A stretch of DNA of 64,000 nt from Clostridiaceae bacterium (GCA_012729635.1 JAAYCT010000014.1:37440-101439), one strand, 5' to 3'; positions 3,125-50,630 are shown, counted from the first letter of the stretch. Notes: a model not told the origin generated them from the letters alone. Made by a program: numbers and translations.

Positions 3125-3345
3125 TAAAAAAACGCCCTAAGAATTAAATCCTTAGGGCGAAAATCCGCGGTACCACCTAAATTCACGGCAAAAGCCGTGA
3201 TCTCTTTCGTTGATAACGGTGAACATCACCGGCGGATTCTACTTCGCATTCTTTCCGCACTCTTGAGCCACTTCACAAAGGTCCGTGTGAAGACTTTCAC
3301 CGACCGTCTTCTCTCTATAACAACGAACTCCCCTGTTACTCTTCT
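3125..3345 (-). promoter_or_regulatory. T-box riboswitch leader with an intrinsic terminator, upstream of valS.
   Basis: Minus-strand AATTTAGGTGGTACCGCGG (plus 3165-3183) matches the conserved T-box sequence. It is followed by the hairpin GCCCTAAGGATTTAATTCTTAGGGCG and a T7 run (plus 3125-3158). An AGAGA GA-motif occurs further 5'. The specifier codon was not assigned. Confidence 0.7.
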
Positions 3346-3549
3346 CAGTCATTGTTTTCTTTATGAGGGGACTCGTGCTCTTGCGCTTTCGGCAGGATAT
3401 ACAGAAGAACGATTCCCGATTTTCAAGATCGTATATGGAGGTCATTCTATCATGGTTGATGTCCGGTGTAAATCGATGACAGAATGCCAACAATCTCCGG
3501 TAGATTTAGGTGGATAATCGGTCGCCGCCTTCTCTCGGACCGGTCCCGA

Positions 3550-42557: not shown

Positions 42558-44099
42558 TCAGAGAGTGAGCACCAACCGCAGATGGGCAAGAGCACTTTCG
42601 CTGAGATATGATTCTTGCTCTCTCAAAAGTTTCAGAATCGTCGTTTTTTGTTCCTCCGTCGGGGCCGAAAACGAGCGATTATAAGTTCCGAACCAGCGGA
42701 TAAATTGTGTCCTGCACATGTTCCGCAAAGGCTCATGCTTATCGGACATGAACCGCAAAATATATATCATTCGCTGCCATTTACCGGCAGAGAACAACAG
42801 CGCCGCACACTTCATTTTCGTACTTCCGTATGGGGTCATGCTGAAAATCTCCTCGATCCGATCATAATCGTGGATCCGGTACTTTTGGATTAATTCTTTC
42901 GCGGTTTTTACAATTCCCCCATGCCCGGACAAAAGCATTTCCGGAATGACCGCGCCGTATCGGCGGGGATCCAACCGCATCAGAGAAATCATCGACGCGC
43001 GAATCACGTCGACCCTGTCACTTTTAAGGTAAGGCTCGATCATTTCGCAAATCGCCGGTGATCCGACTTCACCCAGACCGAGGATAGCGACGGCAGTGTG
43101 AGGGTTTTGTCTTTCCATGTAAAAATTCAAAAAATCAAACCCGGGATCTGTTTTTGTGATAAGGCTTCTTGAAAACTCTCGAACAAACGCGTTCTTATCG
43201 GTCAACAACGACTCCGCTTTCCGAAAAATATCTTTCCGATCCAAATCGTCAAGATACTTCAGCGCGGCATATCGAACACCGGAATATTTATCCGTAAGAA
43301 GCGCATCAGCCAGGTCGGATACATCCAAATCGGTCTTAATGAGCGATTCAAACGCCGTTTTACGCGAAAGCGGATCCTTTCCCCGCAAAATGTATTTTCG
43401 CAGTATCTCCCGGTTCTTCTCCGGAGACCTCAGCAGGATTCGAAGACAAGCATTTCGGATTCCGGAGTTTGAATCAAACAAGCCATCTTCGACGATATGT
43501 ATATTCGCCGGGTCATTGATGACTGTGTCAAAAAGATGGGCGATTTCGGGATACGCACACCTTGTACTTCTTCTTAATCTGTCTATCAATGATATGGATT
43601 GAAGCAGTTCCTGCTCAGAAGCCACTTTCAATCCTTCCGAAAATGAATCAAACGCCGTCTGCCGAACTTCTCCCACCCAATCGTTCAGCCTGGGGATCAC
43701 AAACGGCAAAGTCGCTTCAAATTTACCAAGATATTCTACCGCTCTTTGACGTATATAGCCGTTCGAACTAAAGGTCGAAAAAATGACTGCGGCTCGCTTT
43801 TCCTCTGGAGACATCCCGGAGGTGATGAAATCAGTAATCATCTCCGCCTTCCAAATTGCAGAGCATGAATAATGGGGTTGACGCATATGCGCCCCAGCTT
43901 CTACGATTTGGTCAAACGTTGAACGCCTTAAGAAGGCGGCGAGGGTTTGTGCCGCCTTTTTTGTATACATGGGTATATTCTCTGCAAGAACAGAGAAAAT
44001 GCACGGAATCGCCCACAAATGGCCGGCGTTCAAGTCTTCGATGAAGCCGTCCAGGCGCGATGAGAAGAATGGAACTTGTTTGCGCTTAAAAAACAACAT
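42558..44099 (-). CDS. HEAT-repeat (PBS-lyase-like) protein, 513 aa, function unknown.
   Basis: Repeated LL-D----VR--A---L units (LLTDKYSGVRYAALKYL, LLTDKNAFVREFSRSLI, and others). No catalytic motif recognised. Encoded immediately downstream of rtcB. Confidence 0.6.
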   Translation of the reverse strand: MLFFKRKQVPFFSSRLDGFIEDLNAGHLWAIPCIFSVLAENIPMYTKKAAQTLAAFLRRSTFDQIVEAGAHMRQPHYSCSAIWKAEMITDFITSGMSPEEKRAAVIFSTFSSNGYIRQRAVEYLGKFEATLPFVIPRLNDWVGEVRQTAFDSFSEGLKVASEQELLQSISLIDRLRRSTRCAYPEIAHLFDTVINDPANIHIVEDGLFDSNSGIRNACLRILLRSPEKNREILRKYILRGKDPLSRKTAFESLIKTDLDVSDLADALLTDKYSGVRYAALKYLDDLDRKDIFRKAESLLTDKNAFVREFSRSLITKTDPGFDFLNFYMERQNPHTAVAILGLGEVGSPAICEMIEPYLKSDRVDVIRASMISLMRLDPRRYGAVIPEMLLSGHGGIVKTAKELIQKYRIHDYDRIEEIFSMTPYGSTKMKCAALLFSAGKWQRMIYILRFMSDKHEPLRNMCRTQFIRWFGTYNRSFSAPTEEQKTTILKLLREQESYLSESALAHLRLVLTL

Positions 44100-44217
44100 T
44101 AGTCACCCGCTTTCCCGCCTGACATCAATTATACCCAATTCTGAAAAAAGGCTGTAATGCGACGGTTTCCCGGCAGTGCTGTCAATCCCCGGTCACCCGG
44201 CAGCCTGCTTTCTCCCT

Positions 44218-45420
44218 CTATGCCTTAAAGTTATAGATCGGAACGATGCGTTTCTCCACGTCGACGGTCGGACGGATCTGAGCGACGATATCATCCAGGC
44301 TCTTGTATGCCATTGGCGATTCATCGAGCGTTCTACTCGTCACGCAAGTCGAGTATATTCCCTCCATCTGCTCCCGAAACTCGTCGAGCGACAATTTGGA
44401 AAAGGCCTCTTTTCGACTCATCAGACGTCCCGCCCCATGCGGCGCGGAGTTGTTCCAATCCTCATTTCCTTTGCCGACGCAGATCAAACTGCCGTCGCGC
44501 ATGTTGATCGGAATCAGGAGCCGCTCACCCTTATGGGCCGACACGGCGCCTTTTCTGAGGATCATCTCGTCGGTATCGACATAGTTGTGGATCGTAGTAA
44601 ACCGATCACACTCGTTCAGGTTAAGCCCGGAAAGAACCACTTCCGTCATCGCTTTTCGATTCAGCACCGCGAACCGCTGGATGATTTTCATATCGTGGAT
44701 GTAATCCTCGAAAAGCCGTCCCTCCAGATACGCCAGATCCTTGGGGATATCGATCGGTAAATCATGTTTGCCCTTCATCGACCGGACCGTTTCGAATATC
44801 TCCTGTTCGCGCCCTTCACTTTTAAGCTTTTCGATCACGTCATCGATCTGGTAGTTCGCATGACCCTTCATCGATTTTGCTGCTTCATTCTGGTAGTACT
44901 TGGCGACTTCGTTTCCGATGTGGCGACTGCCGGAGTGGATCACCAGGAAAAGACATCCGTCTTCATCCCGGTCGACCTCGATAAAATGGTTACCGCCGCC
45001 CAAGGTACCGATGCTGTTTCGCGCCCGCTCGATGTTCACAAACCCGGCACAACGCAAAGCCTGCAGATCGATCTCTTCGTGTAACGGATGCGGGCTGTTA
45101 CGGATCGAAAAACCGCTCGGAATCTCACGGCGGATCAAAAAATCGAGTTGATCCAACTCAATATCATGATCCCCGAGACAAACAGTCTCCATGCCGCATC
45201 CGATATCGACACCCACCATACCGGGAACGATTTTGTCGGTGACGGTCATCGTCGTTCCGATCGTGCATCCCATACCGGCGTGCACGTCCGGCATGATCCG
45301 GATTTTGGAGGACGAAAATTCCTCCCGGTTGCAAACTCCGCGGATCTGTTCTTCGGCGGACTGATCCAATCGCGAACAAAAACAGACCGCCTGATTGTGA
45401 AATCCCTTGACTTCGATCAT
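44218..45420 (-). CDS. rtcB: RtcB-family RNA 3'-phosphate ligase.
   Basis: 400 aa. Conserved metal and GTP-site motifs IMPDVHAGMGCTIGTT, GTLGGGNHFIEV and NSAPHGAGR. Confidence 0.85.
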   Translation of the reverse strand: MIEVKGFHNQAVCFCSRLDQSAEEQIRGVCNREEFSSSKIRIMPDVHAGMGCTIGTTMTVTDKIVPGMVGVDIGCGMETVCLGDHDIELDQLDFLIRREIPSGFSIRNSPHPLHEEIDLQALRCAGFVNIERARNSIGTLGGGNHFIEVDRDEDGCLFLVIHSGSRHIGNEVAKYYQNEAAKSMKGHANYQIDDVIEKLKSEGREQEIFETVRSMKGKHDLPIDIPKDLAYLEGRLFEDYIHDMKIIQRFAVLNRKAMTEVVLSGLNLNECDRFTTIHNYVDTDEMILRKGAVSAHKGERLLIPINMRDGSLICVGKGNEDWNNSAPHGAGRLMSRKEAFSKLSLDEFREQMEGIYSTCVTSRTLDESPMAYKSLDDIVAQIRPTVDVEKRIVPIYNFKA

Positions 45421-45448
45421 TTTCTTGCCGCCTTTCCAGTTCAGTGCT

Positions 45449-45475
45449 CCCCGCGCGGGGTCATCCCCGCGCGGG
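45449..45475. other. Two adjacent self-complementary GC-rich elements (CCCCGCGCGGGG tcat CCCCGCGCGGG) in the SPFH-rtcB intergenic space.
   Basis: Read directly. Each element is its own reverse complement. Could serve as a processing or attenuation hairpin pair. Confidence 0.4.
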
Positions 45476-45490
45476 AAACAACACTTGTAC

Positions 45491-46597
45491 TTAATTATCT
45501 TTGCCCCTCAGGATCGATGTCAACTGCGTGAGAACATCTCCGTTTCCGCCGAGGTTAATACTCCCGACATTCTCACAGATCCGCTCGACGTACTCCAACT
45601 CCTTGAGTTTTAAGAGCGTCCGGTTCTCGTCCATCAGTTTGGCCGTGTTCAGAAGCGACCGCGTGGAGGCAACCTCCTCACGCCGCGTGATGACATTGGC
45701 CTGCGCACGCTTCTCGGCGACAAGCACAGTGTTCATGATATCGCGGATCTCGCCCGGAAGGATGATGTCCTTGACCCCGGCTGAAGCAATCTGAATGAAG
45801 AGAGAATTTTCGTTCATCTTCAAACGTTCGAAAACATAACGCGACATTTCCTCTTTATTTTCGAGGATCTCATCGATTCTGTACTTTCCGACGTACTCAC
45901 GGAGCGCCAACTGAGCTGCGACGTGGAGCTGTTCCCGATAGTCGTCGATCTCGCTGTCGATCCGCACGCAGTCAACGACTCTGTAAGTGCACACGAAGTT
46001 GATCCGTAAAGCGACCTTGTCCTGAGAAAGGATCTCCTGCCCGGAAATCTCCATCTTCGTCAACCGCGTGTCGACGAGGCTGACCTCCACCTTCACGTCG
46101 TTCTTCCAGAAGTAGTACGTTCCGGGCTCAAGGACGCGGACGAAATTGCGGTTAAAGCTCAACCGCCCTTTCTGGAACCCGGCTACCTCATACTTCACGA
46201 AGTATGCCTCAGGGATCTTCGAAAAGAGGTAACCGGGCACATCTTCAGAGACCTCCGGAGTCGTGATGTCTACAAGCTGGAATGTTTGCTTCGAGTAAAC
46301 AGACCAGAAGGCATACTTGCCCTGACTCAACACCTGACGGAATCTCCCGTCAACAAAATGCAAGGCCAGTTTGCAGTCGGCAACATCGATCACTTCAACC
46401 GATGCGAGAATCGCCGGGTCGTCGAGAAGGATCTCCAGAGAAGCGTTCTTCGACGCAACCATCCGATCCAGACTTTGCAACTCGATCTGTACGTCGCTCA
46501 AAAAAGAGTACTTCCCTGCGCGCAACATCTTCACATACTTGCCGTTCTTGAAAAGAAGGCCTCTCTCGTTCTCTTTAATTACTGTTTTCATATTCAT
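45491..46597 (-). CDS. SPFH/band-7 (stomatin/prohibitin-like) domain protein with an N-terminal beta-rich extension and no TM helix.
   Basis: C-terminal SPFH core (QDKVALRINFVCTYRVVD...REQLHVAAQLALREYVGKYRIDEILENKEEMS...AEKRAQANVITRREEVAS). RBS GGAGGGT. Confidence 0.7.
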   Translation of the reverse strand: MNMKTVIKENERGLLFKNGKYVKMLRAGKYSFLSDVQIELQSLDRMVASKNASLEILLDDPAILASVEVIDVADCKLALHFVDGRFRQVLSQGKYAFWSVYSKQTFQLVDITTPEVSEDVPGYLFSKIPEAYFVKYEVAGFQKGRLSFNRNFVRVLEPGTYYFWKNDVKVEVSLVDTRLTKMEISGQEILSQDKVALRINFVCTYRVVDCVRIDSEIDDYREQLHVAAQLALREYVGKYRIDEILENKEEMSRYVFERLKMNENSLFIQIASAGVKDIILPGEIRDIMNTVLVAEKRAQANVITRREEVASTRSLLNTAKLMDENRTLLKLKELEYVERICENVGSINLGGNGDVLTQLTSILRGKDN

Positions 46598-46839
46598 ACC
46601 CTCCTTCAGGTTTTATAGCGTTGGCGATTGCCCGTGCACCGGCCGCGGCCGGAATCTTCAGGAGAAAGAGTCATAAGCGGGACGCTGAAGTATGACTTAC
46701 TCTCTCTTTGCCCCGGTATCCGATCCCGATCAAGGCTTCCGACACACTGTCTTTCGGGTTCGGATACTGCCGAAGCATTCCTTTTCGCGAAAGACGGGAC
46801 AATCGCTTCCAAATTGGCCGAATTTTACATCGGCGCGGC

Positions 46840-47010
46840 TGCCTCTACGACAGCGGTTCACCAAACCATGTTTTTACAACACGCGCAGGAATCGAACCTG
46901 ACTAACACCTTGTGGGTCACTTACCCTTTTACGGCTGTGACAACCATGCACAAGTCCCCGTGTGGCATACGCTTCGGAACCTCCTCGCGCACCGCCGTGT
47001 CTTTGAAACA
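46840..47010 (-). ncRNA. Candidate structured ncRNA with a tRNA-like T-arm (possible Y-RNA/YrlA-like tRNA mimic) in the 570-bp gap upstream of the SPFH-rtcB genes.
   Basis: Minus strand contains CAGGTTCGATTCCTG (plus 46866-46880), a near-perfect tRNA T-stem-loop. No complete cloverleaf or CCA was found. It is flanked by the direct repeat TGCGCGTGTT. The gap has no plausible ORF. Confidence 0.25.
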
Positions 47011-47167
47011 CGCGCAACGGCACCTTGCATACTCATCATGCCAAAGGAGAATCATCGGTTCACGGAAAAAAACCTGCGAACTTCGTTGAAAAATCCCGGA
47101 TCAAGTCCGGGATGTCGTTTTGCGGATTGTTTTCGAGCGGAAAAAGAAGCGGCGGGAATCATTCAAA

Positions 47168-48064
47168 TCAGAGCGGATACAGCTCCATCTGTTTTTGAAG
47201 CCGGTAACGGATCAGCTCGATAAAGCTCTCCGGCTCAACCACCCTTACAAAGGGTCCGAAGGAGAGTACGCGGATCAGGATCTCGGTCTCGTCGGTCTGA
47301 TCATAACGAAGCGCCACCCGATAACGGTCCTCCGCGATCCGTTCCGCTCTTTTTTCAAAATGAGCGAAGTGCAAGAACAGTCGCTCCATCGCGTTTCTTC
47401 GGTCGATCAATTCCAGGGTCAGAGAACAGGTTTTCCCAATGCGTGACTTTCCGTGATCTAGCTGCTCGCCGGGGTAAGGATTACAGGAGATGATTTTTGA
47501 TAAGTTGATCGTACCCGCATACCGGCACCCGGTCGAGATCAACCGGAACTTATCGTCCTTCTCCGAATACTCCAGATGATCCGGCAGAACCTTCATAAAC
47601 ATGGATTTCCCATAACGGTTCAGGATGCGAATGCCCAAAGGCGTCTTGTCTCGGATCGCGCTTAGGATCACACGGAAATTGCGGATATATGTCTCATCCG
47701 AATAATCATCTCCGTCCCCGTACCGGTCGAAAACCACATAGTCCTCCGGAGTAAACAGCGGATCGACATCATCGAGTCCTTGGAATTCCACCCCGAAAAG
47801 CGCCACGCGCGGATCGAGCGAGACTGCCTTCAGCCAACGCTTCTGGATCGTCGCAAGCGGCATCGTCGGCGCATGGCGTATCGGGGTCTTCAGATCATGC
47901 CCGAGCAACTGCCATCGCGCTTCTTTAAGAGCCGGAACGATCGTCAATACACTCTCGGAAAAGGCATGTTCGTCCGTGATCTCCCGGAGATCTTTTTCCG
48001 AAAGATTTCCGTTTACGGCCGCTTCCAAAATTTTCGCGACCGTCTGGTAGTACGCGCCGTACAT
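47168..48064 (-). CDS. WYL-domain-containing transcriptional regulator (PafC-like partner).
   Basis: C-terminal WYL/WCX-like region (RYRVALRYDQTDETEILIRVLSFGPFVRVVEP). The start is ambiguous. ATG at plus 48062-48064 avoids overlap with the upstream gene. The longer ORF to 48223 would overlap by 148 nt. Confidence 0.55.
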   Translation of the reverse strand: MYGAYYQTVAKILEAAVNGNLSEKDLREITDEHAFSESVLTIVPALKEARWQLLGHDLKTPIRHAPTMPLATIQKRWLKAVSLDPRVALFGVEFQGLDDVDPLFTPEDYVVFDRYGDGDDYSDETYIRNFRVILSAIRDKTPLGIRILNRYGKSMFMKVLPDHLEYSEKDDKFRLISTGCRYAGTINLSKIISCNPYPGEQLDHGKSRIGKTCSLTLELIDRRNAMERLFLHFAHFEKRAERIAEDRYRVALRYDQTDETEILIRVLSFGPFVRVVEPESFIELIRYRLQKQMELYPL

Positions 48065-48075
48065 CTCACTGAAAA

Positions 48076-49338
48076 TCACGTCGCATATCCTCCATCCGCC
48101 TTTGACTCCGTCTCCATACCATACATCTGTGCCATCGCGCGAAAATCCGCCCGAAACTGCTCTTCCTGTTCGCGATCCGAGAATTCTAGGTTCACGATCC
48201 TGCATAAATAGGATCGAATCCACGGATTCAGTTCGGTCGGATCATAGACATCCGCCGTGAATCGCAATGTGTGTTCGTCCAGTCGCTCAACCGTCCCGCA
48301 GCGCTTCTCACGTTCCAGGCGCTGAATAATATACTCTTCTCCGTCATCGATATGAACGTCGAAAAGAACCCTCTGAGTGCGCGATTCGTTTTTTCGGGTC
48401 ATCACGCCCCACATGTGTTGACACATGCGGTCGAGCTTTTCACGAAGTTCGTTAAATCGGTTATTCTGTTCGCCGATCTCTACGCTTCGCAAGTAATCCG
48501 TCCGGAACACCCGGATTTTCTTCATTCGTAAGCAAAACACGAGAACGTACTGTCGACCGCTCTGAGCGCTGATATAAATCCGCAAAGGAACGACGCGATC
48601 CCGGGTTAAGCCCCCCCTCCGGCTTTGATTTTCAAGTGTGACCTCACGCTTTTCGCGCATCGCGAGAAAAAGGTCGCACAGCGCTTCGCTGTCGAGCGCG
48701 TGAGTGATGTAATGGTGCTTAAAGGTAAATGCTTCCGGCGCTCCCCGCCCTTTATCGAGAAGAAAAGACCCGATCACCCCGCACGGCGCGATCTCCGAGA
48801 AGAAGTCGAGCAGATCCGTGTGCTCCGAAAGATCGGTATCCTCCGCTCTTCGATACAGGACCTGCCTTCCCTCTTTTTCCGCTTGAAGAAGACCCGCTTC
48901 GGTGTATTCCTTGAGTTTTTTTCGCAGGGTCGAATCGTCGACGGATATCGGCTCTTCGAAAAACGACAAATACCGGTTATTCATCTCGTCCATGATCTCC
49001 GATACGGTCATCGCGACGTCCGGCGAGTGGAGGATGTCAAACAGGATGAAGTGAAGAGTAATGTCGCCGTCGGTAAAACTGCTGGTTTTCCAGGCTCTGA
49101 AAAGCGGGTTGTGCGGGCACGCACGGCTGTCGATCGACAGGAAGCAATTTTTCCCGTCCGGAGTCTGGCTGAAGCCCATATAATCGCCGAGCCAGCTCTC
49201 GACCCGCCGCTTCTCGTCGTCATAAGAGCGCGCGCTTTTTTGTGAGAACTGCTCCCGGCTCTTAAAGCCGTACACGTAGAACTCCCTCATGTATTCACGG
49301 ATTCGCTCAAAACTCTTGATGCGCTCGTTGTAGGCCAT
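48076..49338 (-). CDS. HTH-WYL-domain transcriptional regulator (PafB-like).
   Basis: Classic WYL motif RQYVLVFCLRMKKIRVFRTDYLRSVE. 420 aa. RBS AAGGATG. Confidence 0.7.
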   Translation of the reverse strand: MAYNERIKSFERIREYMREFYVYGFKSREQFSQKSARSYDDEKRRVESWLGDYMGFSQTPDGKNCFLSIDSRACPHNPLFRAWKTSSFTDGDITLHFILFDILHSPDVAMTVSEIMDEMNNRYLSFFEEPISVDDSTLRKKLKEYTEAGLLQAEKEGRQVLYRRAEDTDLSEHTDLLDFFSEIAPCGVIGSFLLDKGRGAPEAFTFKHHYITHALDSEALCDLFLAMREKREVTLENQSRRGGLTRDRVVPLRIYISAQSGRQYVLVFCLRMKKIRVFRTDYLRSVEIGEQNNRFNELREKLDRMCQHMWGVMTRKNESRTQRVLFDVHIDDGEEYIIQRLEREKRCGTVERLDEHTLRFTADVYDPTELNPWIRSYLCRIVNLEFSDREQEEQFRADFRAMAQMYGMETESKADGGYAT

Positions 49339-49438
49339 GGTTTACATCCTTATCGCTCATTTATTCCCGGTTTGGAGGTTGACGTTTCACGATTTTCGTT
49401 AGTCTTTCCGTTTATAGATCGATCACACAGTTTCCCTC

Positions 49439-50630
49439 TCACCCGATCAGCCAGTTCGAGACATCTACGATTTTAATCCCTTCGTATTGGTACGATTCAT
49501 GTCTTGTTCTTGCAATAATAATTTTCGGGTAAGCATCTTTGATTTGCAGGAGCGGATCCACTTCCCGTGCAAAGGTTTTCGGGTCGCTGATATTGTCCGA
49601 AACCTGTATGTAAAGTTTCTCATCCCGCCGGATGGCAACAAAATCAATTTCTCTTCTATACAAGATCCCGGCGTACAATTCATATCCCCGGCGCAACAAG
49701 TCGATCGCGATTATATTTTCGATCATTCGTCCGTAATCGAGATTTTTAGTCCCGAGTTTAGCATATCGAAAAGCGTGATCGCTCAGATAGTATTTATGAT
49801 TTGAGGATAAGTATTTCTTTCCCCTGATGTCATATCTTCTCACTATGTAAAATGCAAAGGCATTACAAAGATATGCCATATATGCACTGACTGTCTTATG
49901 GTTCACCGCATCCCGGTTGCCGGTCAGCGAGTCCGCTATACTTCTCGCTGACGATAGATTTGAAATGTTATCCAACAAAAAATCTGTGACCCGGTCCATC
50001 AAGGCGATATTCCTGATTTTGTACTTCTGTCGAATATCGCGGATGATCAGAGTATCAAATACATCAGCGATGTATTGATACTTCTCGTCTGTCGAGGTAT
50101 AAGCGTAGGATCCCGCCATGCCCCCCTCAATCAAAAAACGCTCATATGCTTCATACGGATCACTAAGCGAATAGTAGTCCATGAATTCCGGTAACGAAAA
50201 CGGAAATACCTCGATTTCGAAGGTTCTGCCCGTAAAAAGTGTCGCCAAATCGCTGCCCAATAAAAAAGCGTTGGATCCGGTGATATAAATGTCATATTTT
50301 CCGGAAGAATGAAGACTGTTGATCGTAAGCTCGAATTTCGGGCACAATTGCACTTCATCAACGAAAAGATAATTCGACTTGCCCCGCTCGTATCTATCCT
50401 CGATATAATCGTTCAGTCGGTGATAATCGAGAAGCCTCTCGAAAGAAAGGTCAGTTAAATCGATATACGTAACATTGGCCGTTTGATCGGTGCTTCGAAT
50501 AAAATCAACAAATGATTCGACCAGACGAGACTTTCCGCTTCGTCTGACGCCGGTGATCACCTTAATGTCCGGTGTTCCCCGAACCCTCTTCAACTGATCA
50601 AGATAATACTTTCGCTCGATCCATTTCATT
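49439..50630 (-). CDS. AAA+ ATPase of the DUF4143 family (paralog 2 of 3).
   Basis: Walker A GVRRSGKSRL and Walker B LFVDEVQ. Start at plus 50628-50630 with RBS GGCGGAGGG. AT-rich gene. Confidence 0.8.

Follow-up and report, generated by a model that had tools for sequence, protein, structure and literature searches.

A Band-7(SPFH)/RtcB locus with a multi-domain tRNA-like RNA and a putative WYL regulator pair in a Clostridiaceae bacterium

Results and Discussion

The 64,000-nucleotide (nt) stretch of DNA analysed here, called the window and used in full for the numbering of all its positions, comes from a Clostridiaceae bacterium (GCA_012729635.1, JAAYCT010000014.1:37440-101439) and carries a minus-strand locus in which a gene for the RNA ligase RtcB follows two tandem WYL-domain regulator genes, a large structured RNA and a gene for a soluble SPFH (Band-7) protein. 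RtcB joins 3′-phosphate or 2′,3′-cyclic-phosphate ends to 5′-OH ends, and systems built on it are widespread among bacteria; to our knowledge, their substrates, cofactors and signals are largely unknown outside the enterobacterial RtcR system. The locus is very probably a member of the Band-7(SPFH)/RtcB system with a tRNA-like RNA that was predicted in 2016. The explanation that best accounts for the data overall, held with somewhat better than even confidence, is a Band-7/RtcB RNA-repair system with a tRNA-like RNA, PafBC-like control by the WYL pair, and sealing by RtcB with the help of a ribonucleoprotein (RNP).

In its passage on these systems, a 2018 preprint on YrlA that cites Burroughs and Aravind (2016) reports that some bacteria have RtcB beside Band-7 and a predicted "band 7-associated tRNA", described there as strongly resembling an authentic tRNA. 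The RNA was suggested to be redundant in function with YrlA and Ro and, together with Band-7, to serve as a cofactor or scaffold much as Ro and Y RNA do; this computational prediction had no experimental validation as of 2018 (bioRxiv 10.1101/312249). Where it cites the 2016 work, a 2022 paper from the same group speaks of RNA-repair pathways under the control of WYL transcription factors, for which RNA fragments with cyclic ends are the sensed signal (PMC9503650). No experimental study of an SPFH-RtcB-RNA system was found in the searchable full-text literature. An earlier reading of this DNA, the original prediction, had regarded the SPFH protein as foreign to any described Rtc module and the whole as possibly an undescribed one; according to these citing passages, neither view holds for the core, which was already predicted computationally in 2016. 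The RNA goes beyond "a tRNA-like gene" in both size and complexity. Possibly new are the geometry of promoter and operator-like box, the multi-domain RNA, and two loci in which a DUF2828/vWA-like protein replaces SPFH.

The proposed mechanism could as easily prove wrong as right in its particulars. A heterodimer of WYL1 and WYL2 would bind an asymmetric box centred near -43 and, upon sensing a product of nucleic-acid damage, perhaps RNA fragments, would turn on a promoter with a weak -35 and an extended -10, an activation proposed by analogy with PafBC and DriD. The structured RNA and the SPFH-RtcB mRNA would then come from one transcript. The RNA and oligomeric SPFH would form an RNP analogous to that of Ro60 with Y RNA, and this particle would scaffold or present broken RNAs, probably tRNA or rRNA with 2′,3′-cyclic-phosphate and 5′-OH ends, for sealing by RtcB.

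A conserved unit of five elements

The original prediction had joined seven minus-strand elements into one neighbourhood: the two WYL regulators, an RNA-like gap, SPFH, RtcB, a HEAT-repeat protein and a DUF4143 ATPase. All seven are present on that strand, and calls of open reading frames (ORFs) and Pfam domains agree with the predicted coordinates except at the start of WYL2, which is the GTG at 48079 and not 48064; they do not, however, form one unit. As judged from gene order in related loci, the real unit is 44218-49338, which comprises five of the seven elements and leaves out the HEAT and DUF4143 genes:

48076-49338, minus strand: WYL1, 420 amino acids (aa); Pfam WYL, E = 8.5e-8
47168-48079, minus strand: WYL2, 303 aa, GTG start; a divergent paralogue
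46598-47028, minus strand: structured RNA of about 430 nt, a noncoding RNA or long leader reaching to the SPFH start codon (78-locus conservation profile)
45491-46597, minus strand: SPFH/Band-7 protein, 368 aa; Pfam Band_7, E = 4e-24
44218-45420, minus strand: RtcB RNA ligase (3′-phosphate/5′-OH), 400 aa; Pfam RtcB, E = 6e-63

All window proteins were screened by tblastn against 84 SPFH loci. The conserved order is WYL1, WYL2, a 23-nt box, an extended -10, the structured RNA of about 430 nt, soluble SPFH and, usually, RtcB. Among the 62 loci with enough flanking sequence, 51 have WYL1 and WYL2 immediately 5′ of the RNA and SPFH, and RtcB lies within 2.5 kb downstream of SPFH in 51 of the 69 loci counted for it; in the window RtcB starts 70 nt after SPFH, the adjacency described for the 2016 system in the papers that cite it. 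The RlaP nucleotidyltransferase is present in eight of the related loci. Gene calls in three related loci (L007-L009) share the order WYL, a 303-aa protein with a 4-nt overlap, a gap of about 530 nt, Band_7 and RtcB, and the called-gene maps of L007-L010 are consistent with the module order. Conservation of gene order, which had been suggested as a check, is thus seen for the WYL pair, the gap RNA, SPFH and mostly RtcB, and is not seen for HEAT and DUF4143.

The conserved part lies far beyond chance, as the box has a single occurrence in the window against zero expected, and each of 57 loci has one copy, which in every case precedes SPFH on the same strand. Relatives of the SPFH protein occur in at least 571 GTDB species, mostly Clostridia, so that the module is abundant in gut Clostridia, with thousands of protein clusters and several cultured carriers, among them Oscillibacter valericigenes Sjm18-20 (L040), Robinsoniella peoriensis (L042), Hominibacterium faecale (L071) and Dielma fastidiosa (L089). 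It offers a compact, testable system with a defined putative operator, a two-protein putative sensor, a large structured RNA without an Rfam family, and a soluble SPFH protein.

Promoter, box and WYL regulators

The gap between WYL2 and SPFH (46598-47167) holds the conserved structured RNA with a promoter in front of it. The elements preceding the RNA are:

47093-47113, minus strand: terminator-like hairpin, ATCCCGGA-CTT-GATCCGGGAT followed by TTTTT, just 3′ of WYL2
47060-47082, minus strand: 23-nt box, AGTTCGCAGGTTTTTTTCCGTGA, near-invariant and non-palindromic
47035-47043, minus strand: extended -10, TGG-CATGAT (TGGCATGAT), from an alignment of 58 loci

The consensus of the box across loci is AGTTCGCA[G/A]NTTTTTTTCCGTGA (alignment of 58-78 loci), and its distance to the extended -10 is 16-17 nt. 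Most relatives have the -10 form TGnTAAAAT, and TAGAAT and TATAAT also occur. From this geometry transcription would start near 47028, about 7 nt after the -10, which would place the box at approximately -54 to -32, covering the -35 position, with its centre near -43. That -35 is itself weak, and the predicted combination of a weak -35, an extended -10 and an upstream box is the layout of an activator-dependent promoter. The box is the putative operator of the WYL1/WYL2 pair. The window holds no second copy of it; such a copy would be a possible sign of WYL autoregulation. A sigma-54 promoter (TGGCA...TTGCA) was considered and rejected in favour of the extended -10, because the GG-to-GC spacing is 14 in all loci and not 12 and because the regulators have no AAA+ domain. 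In L007 and L008 the spacer between WYL2 and the box is too short for the terminator-like hairpin that follows WYL2 in the window.

WYL1 has an additional N-terminal region followed by a winged helix-turn-helix (HTH) at about residues 110-185, a WYL domain at about 212-290 and a WCX-like C-terminus. It matches the PADLOC models for WYL (E = 1e-12) and a Csa3-type HTH (E = 1e-5), and a profile search of the PDB gives weak matches to ArsR/SmtB HTH proteins and to PafB/PafC. WYL2 has a helical N-terminus, a degenerate WYL domain and a WCX, and its GTG start and the WYL1 stop overlap within the sequence GTGA (48076-48079). It has 6136 homologues, mostly of 303 aa. In Pfam it gives a weak WCX match alone, and its match to the PADLOC WYL model has an E-value of 7.5e-6. 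The AlphaFold (AF2) model of WYL2, built from 28 homologues, has a predicted local distance difference test score (pLDDT) of 78, and its best PDB match in Foldseek is PafC in the complex of PafBC with RNA polymerase (9fnd_Y, E = 6e-8); further fold matches are to DriD, PafBC, BrxR and CapW, the E-values including that of PafC ranging from 6e-8 to 1e-4. Because of the PADLOC match and the fold matches of the model to known WYL regulators, WYL2 is taken as a genuine member of the WYL family, and helices in the model suggest that it, too, has an HTH.

PafBC, a mycobacterial and actinobacterial heterodimer, and DriD of Caulobacter are WYL activators that are switched on by single-stranded nucleic acid. 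WYL1 and WYL2 share the HTH-WYL-WCX fold with them, the HTH of WYL2 being that predicted from the model helices, and are encoded, like PafB and PafC, by tandem paralogous genes. The proposed operator is also of the PafBC/DriD kind, being non-palindromic, lying beside or replacing the -35 and paired with a good -10, if the WYL pair is indeed what binds it. The differences are that sequence similarity to PafBC and DriD is marginal (E = 0.05-0.5), that WYL1 has its additional N-terminal region, and that the putative regulon here is an RNA-repair operon whereas PafBC and DriD control DNA-repair genes. The description of the two proteins as a PafB/PafC-like tandem pair is upheld by the fold matches, the GTGA coupling and the arrangement in 51 of 62 loci. 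The pair also occupies, as had been pointed out, the regulatory position that RtcR has in Proteobacteria, a likeness that is one of analogy only.

The WYL pair might instead be a repressor resembling CapW or BrxR that occludes the -35 and is released by a damage signal, a reading that is rather doubtful but the most serious of the alternatives. It is favoured by the overlap of the box with the -35 position, by the presence of BrxR and CapW among the fold matches of WYL2, and by the description of many WYL transcription factors as negative regulators by the Aravind group (PMC9503650). The best fold matches of WYL2 are nevertheless the activators PafC and DriD, the tandem genes of heterodimer type mirror PafB and PafC, and a non-palindromic box centred near -43 together with a weak -35 and an extended -10 is the usual arrangement where an activator is needed. 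These features argue for activation by the WYL heterodimer as the preferred mode of control.

The structured RNA

The gap had been described as resembling a noncoding RNA, and it does contain one, with a conserved structure that is supported by covariation. Rfam 15 has no family for it and gave only sub-threshold, chance-level matches at E-values up to 10. Helices were found by a scan of column pairs followed by pair-count tests on tool-made alignments, with slid controls for comparison and, in the case of the 3′ domain and of P2 plus P3, 500 shuffles each; RNAalifold on raw MAFFT alignments gave almost nothing. The following parts are recognized:

46950-47028, minus strand: 5′ domain, in which P1 encloses the hairpins P2 and P3
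47028-47024 (GCAAG) with 46954-46950 (CUUGU), minus strand: P1, a long-range helix
47011-46997, minus strand: P2, a hairpin
46993-46964, minus strand: P3, a hairpin, GGUGCGC...GCGUAUGCC
46886-46900, minus strand: T-arm mimic, CAGG-UUCGAUU-CCUG, with a 7-nt T-loop
46634-46747, minus strand: 3′ domain, with nested long-range helices Ha and Hb and the hairpin Hc
46747-46742 with 46639-46634, minus strand: Ha, a long-range helix
46729-46725 with 46653-46649, minus strand: Hb, a long-range helix

For P2 and P3 (54 sequences), 97.3% of cells are paired against at most 59% in slid controls, covariation is 0.286 against at most 0.109, and none of the 500 shuffles reaches the score. P1 pairs GCAAG with CUUGY in the family, and 9 of 18 variant 5-mers are perfectly compensated, including GUAAA/UUUAC, ACAGG/CCUGU and GCAGG/CCUGC, against 19% in the cross control. 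For the 3′ domain (59 sequences), 89.5% of cells are paired against 35-51% in slid controls, covariation is 0.69 against at most 0.20, 280 cells are changed on both sides, and again no shuffle of 500 reaches the score. The loops GCCUUG, GGAUACCG, UYCCGC, CUNAA and GCCGC of the 3′ domain are invariant and look like binding or tertiary-contact sites.

Between the two domains, after a region of 16-105 nt that is variable in content, lies the T-arm mimic. Its stem has 5 base pairs (bp) in the family and 4 bp in the window, where the outermost pair is U/C, and 99.3% of cells are paired over 55 sequences, a figure for which slid controls were not separately computed. Compensatory pairs occur as G-C and A-U in a ratio of 34:21 and as C-G and U-A in a ratio of 44:11, with no unpaired cells at those positions. 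The T-arm falls within a weak tRNA-like match (46879-46963) to Rfam tRNA-Sec that scores 17.2 bits against a gathering score of 47, too low for an authentic tRNA gene. ARAGORN calls tRNAs in the gap in only 3 of 60 loci, as cloverleaves in L025, L033 and L050; the acceptor stems of these three calls are weak and clash with a better-supported covarying hairpin right after the T-arm, and they were rejected. This post-T-arm hairpin (66% paired) and a hairpin with a UGG loop (80% paired) have moderate support on the automatic alignment, and the version in the window's clade is shorter. As far as the 2016 system is known from papers citing it, the T-arm supplies the tRNA-like noncoding RNA expected beside Band-7, with a resemblance to tRNA that is only partial; the difference from the band 7-associated tRNA is that here a T-arm and variable arms are set within a multi-domain RNA of about 430 nt, most instances of which escape tRNA finders. 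A further difference from the system in those accounts is that a box, a promoter and a coupled WYL pair are defined here.

Several further features of the RNA are recorded. In many loci (e.g., L008:7640-7656), though not in the window, the main T-arm is preceded at a distance of about 40 nt by a second T-loop-like hairpin, GGGG-UUCAANU-CCCC, so that some of these RNAs have two T-arm mimics. CUUGUG (46954-46949) can pair either with GCAAGG at the 5′ end (47028-47023) or with CACAAG (46913-46908, a perfect 6 bp), and RNAs of the L007-L018 type have a comparable three-way choice among GCAAG, CUUGC and GGCAA; these alternative pairings may be a switch or a coincidence. GCCUUG (46736-46731) is complementary to AAGG of the Shine-Dalgarno region (46613-46608) and could pair with it in 83-95% of sequences, a pairing on which covariation is uninformative because each of the two segments is conserved on other grounds. 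A hammerhead ribozyme was considered on account of CUGAUGAG in L007, L008 and L015 and rejected, as the GAAA core is missing.

Loops of 7 nt with the anticodon-like sequence CUGUNAA cap hairpins in 21 of 72 loci, the corresponding figures being 1.2 for shuffles and 6 for the antisense strand. They are located in different hairpins from species to species (e.g., L016:5363-5381, and in L033, L027, L029 and L058) and are absent from the RNA of the window. The implied anticodons are GUC (12), GUA (5), GUU (4) and GUG (1), for Asp, Tyr, Asn and His, respectively; GUN anticodons of these four tRNAs define the queuosine/colicin-E5 tRNA family. The loops are suggestive of a decoy or sentinel role.

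The element might also be purely a leader acting in cis, a riboswitch- or attenuator-like sensor for SPFH-RtcB with no RNP role in trans, which is considered unlikely. Such a leader would suit the lack of a detected terminator between the RNA and SPFH, the end of the 3′ domain about 35 nt before the ribosome-binding site, and the possible pairing of GCCUUG with the Shine-Dalgarno AAGG. Five clear loci (L020, L022, L029, L034 and L063; L075 is uncertain) have an additional ORF of 205-248 aa separating the RNA from SPFH, an arrangement that speaks against a role of the RNA as translational leader of SPFH only; the sole copy scanned, that of L029 (L029:6231-6977), has no Pfam match. L092 has two near-complete tRNA-like units between the box and RtcB, and the canonical T-arm, together with the precedent of Y RNA, points to a bound or processed RNA. 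Leader and trans roles are moreover compatible with each other.

The SPFH protein and the question of a particle

The SPFH protein is the hallmark protein of the predicted module and has at least 7982 homologues. Its architecture consists of two additional N-terminal beta modules, the SPFH domain and C-terminal helices; its sequence contains no transmembrane or hydrophobic segment, which agrees with the earlier view of it as soluble. The beta module (about 65-130 aa long), with the motif G-K-[FY]-x-x-x-L-x-x-G-x-Y-x-F-W, repeats the start of the SPFH domain. Motif copies lie at residues 10-32, 76-98 and 142-166 of the window protein, and homologues have one to four additional modules (e.g., P0005 of 638 aa, P0011 of 507 aa, P0015 of 496 aa and P0080 of 519 aa). 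The structure model has a pLDDT of 71, near 92 for the N-terminal 130 residues and with low confidence in the C-terminal part. In Foldseek it matches stomatin, HflK/C and prohibitin over about 230 columns, and major vault protein with E-values of 7e-9 to 2e-5 over 417-452 columns, a span that includes gaps and exceeds the 368-aa query, at TM-scores of 0.25-0.27.

SPFH proteins form large rings or cages. Major vault protein has N-terminal beta repeats, an SPFH-like shoulder, long helices and a small structured RNA, features for which there may be counterparts here, a likeness of resemblance only; the module protein differs in having only two N-terminal modules (up to four in homologues), and the TM-scores are low. 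An RNA-SPFH particle, if it exists, would be a second, independent case of the Ro/Y-RNA principle, would give SPFH proteins a non-membrane, RNA-linked role, and would be relevant to how the SPFH-like shoulder domain of the vault arose.

Three observations weigh against the reading of the locus as an RNA-repair system with a tRNA-like RNA under PafBC-like control. First, 18 of the 69 loci have no RtcB and have unrelated genes after SPFH, so that RNA repair may be neither the sole nor the core role of the module. Second, the sequence similarity between WYL1 and WYL2 is weak (hhalign probability 10%). Third, ARAGORN finds no tRNA gene in the window, and the resemblance to tRNA is partial, with a best tRNA-family score of 17 bits. 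Because unrelated genes follow SPFH in the RtcB-less loci, the tightest core by conservation is the WYL pair, the gap and SPFH. In one such locus the gene after SPFH encodes a full-length class-I release factor with PCRF and RF-1 domains (L074:7071-8288), which is probably a housekeeping protein.

It could then be the SPFH-RNA particle itself that performs the core function, either as a vault- or Ro-like RNP or by serving as decoy or sentinel for toxins that target tRNA, and RtcB would be an optional accessory; this appears improbable. The retention of the WYL pair, RNA and SPFH in the 18 RtcB-less loci, the excess of CUGUNAA loops over shuffles and the long alignment of the SPFH model to major vault protein speak for it. 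RtcB is still the commonest downstream gene, however, and RtcB and RlaP stay when SPFH is replaced (L091 and L092); genomes without RtcB at the locus may encode it elsewhere, the CUGUNAA loops are absent from the window, and the vault TM-scores are low. Of a similarly slim likelihood is a bolder extension, in which the gap would represent a new class of multi-domain RNA of about 430 nt in a Ro- or vault-like particle with oligomeric SPFH; its tRNA-mimic arms, which in 29% of species copy GUN anticodons, would act as sentinels or decoys for tRNA-cleaving toxins, and the cleaved products would be sensed by the WYL heterodimer in an induce-and-repair loop with RtcB. The RNA-repair system with RNP-assisted sealing is preferred to both.

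Relation to other RtcB systems

The rsr-yrlA/yrlB-rtcBA loci of Salmonella and Deinococcus, which encode a Ro60 orthologue and tRNA-mimicking Y RNAs, resemble the module in combining a ligase operon with a noncoding RNA that has a tRNA-like module and with an RNA-binding scaffold that forms a ring or cage, a role that would fall to SPFH here. They differ in that the putative scaffold here is SPFH, with no TROVE/Ro protein and no TROVE plus vWA protein beside the RNA in the window, and in that the regulator is a WYL pair at a sigma-70-type promoter, whereas theirs is RtcR with sigma-54. The proteobacterial RtcR-RtcA-RtcB system likewise subjects RtcB to a regulator that senses a ligand, predicted to be damaged nucleic acid, but the module lacks CARF, a sigma-54 activator domain, a sigma-54 promoter and RtcA; no Sigma54_activat, CARF or RTC domain and no RtcA was found in the ORFs scanned at 38-56 kb. 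PrfH-RtcB pairs for ribosome rescue are known as well; the window ORFs scanned contain neither an RF-1 nor a PCRF domain. An SPFH gene, PaFlo8, is included in the rtc locus of P. aeruginosa (PMC13086221).

Loci in which SPFH is replaced

A scan for the box in 2.9 million IMG/VR viral contigs gave two matches only, L091 and L092. Both have the WYL pair and the box (20-nt core) and no SPFH (L091:2016-8598; L092:7681-12988). In L092 a stretch of about 430 nt with the two near-complete tRNA-like units comes after the box, then RtcB and after it a 489-aa protein with DUF2828 and DUF7788, and in L091 the WYL pair is divergent from the box, with DUF2828/DUF7788, RtcB and RlaP. CUCAUAA is the anticodon-like loop of one of the tRNA-like units. 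Similarity to vWA is weak in the DUF7788 part (E = 0.085); the layout of Ro60 is a helical domain followed by vWA, and DUF2828 is, we presume, linked to TROVE. This arrangement fits interchangeable scaffolds, where one putative sensor and operator would drive either an SPFH-type or a Ro-like scaffold together with tRNA-like RNAs and RtcB.

Neighbouring genes and other window features

The two flanking genes that had been proposed as partners are:

42558-44099, minus strand: HEAT_2 protein, 513 aa
49439-50650, minus strand: ATPase with the Pfam domains AAA_14 and DUF4143

Neither partnership survives the comparison of loci. For the HEAT protein, a collection of 5.8 billion proteins yields only 14 homologues; in three independent genomic contexts, where the homologues are 39-52% identical, neither RtcB nor Band-7/SPFH is present, and tblastn found a homologue of it in 0 of the 84 related loci; the same count, 0 of 84, applies to the DUF4143 ATPase. 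Locus L009, whose SPFH is 85% identical, has neither gene. The ATPase is a full-length match to PDC-S01, a stand-alone single-gene candidate for phage defence in PADLOC (E = 8e-138). On these comparisons, the HEAT protein and the DUF4143 ATPase are chance neighbours outside the module. That all seven elements make up one new co-regulated module for RNA quality control, as the shared strand and short spacers might suggest, can be set aside as extremely improbable in view of these locus counts, the unrelated contexts of the HEAT homologues, the PDC-S01 match, the terminator-like hairpin after WYL2, and a hairpin with a U6 run plus a perfect TATAAT between RtcB and HEAT, a hairpin that is not statistically distinctive.

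The HEAT protein was also considered as a divergent Ro/TROVE protein, a similarity that had been suggested for checking, and this was rejected: Pfam gives only HEAT_2/HEAT, with no TROVE or vWA at E-values up to 10, there is no match to Ro60 in the PDB, and the gene is not conserved. A terminator between RtcB and HEAT was likewise rejected, the fold of the U6 hairpin being no better than that of shuffles (z = -1.0). The other flanking ORFs are, by domain scan, unrelated housekeeping genes with no link to the module. A T-box leader (3150-3361, minus strand; RF00230, 125.7 bits), which together with near-identical proteins from Clostridia metagenome-assembled genomes points to a Bacillota host, is the sole Rfam match at the gathering threshold in the window.

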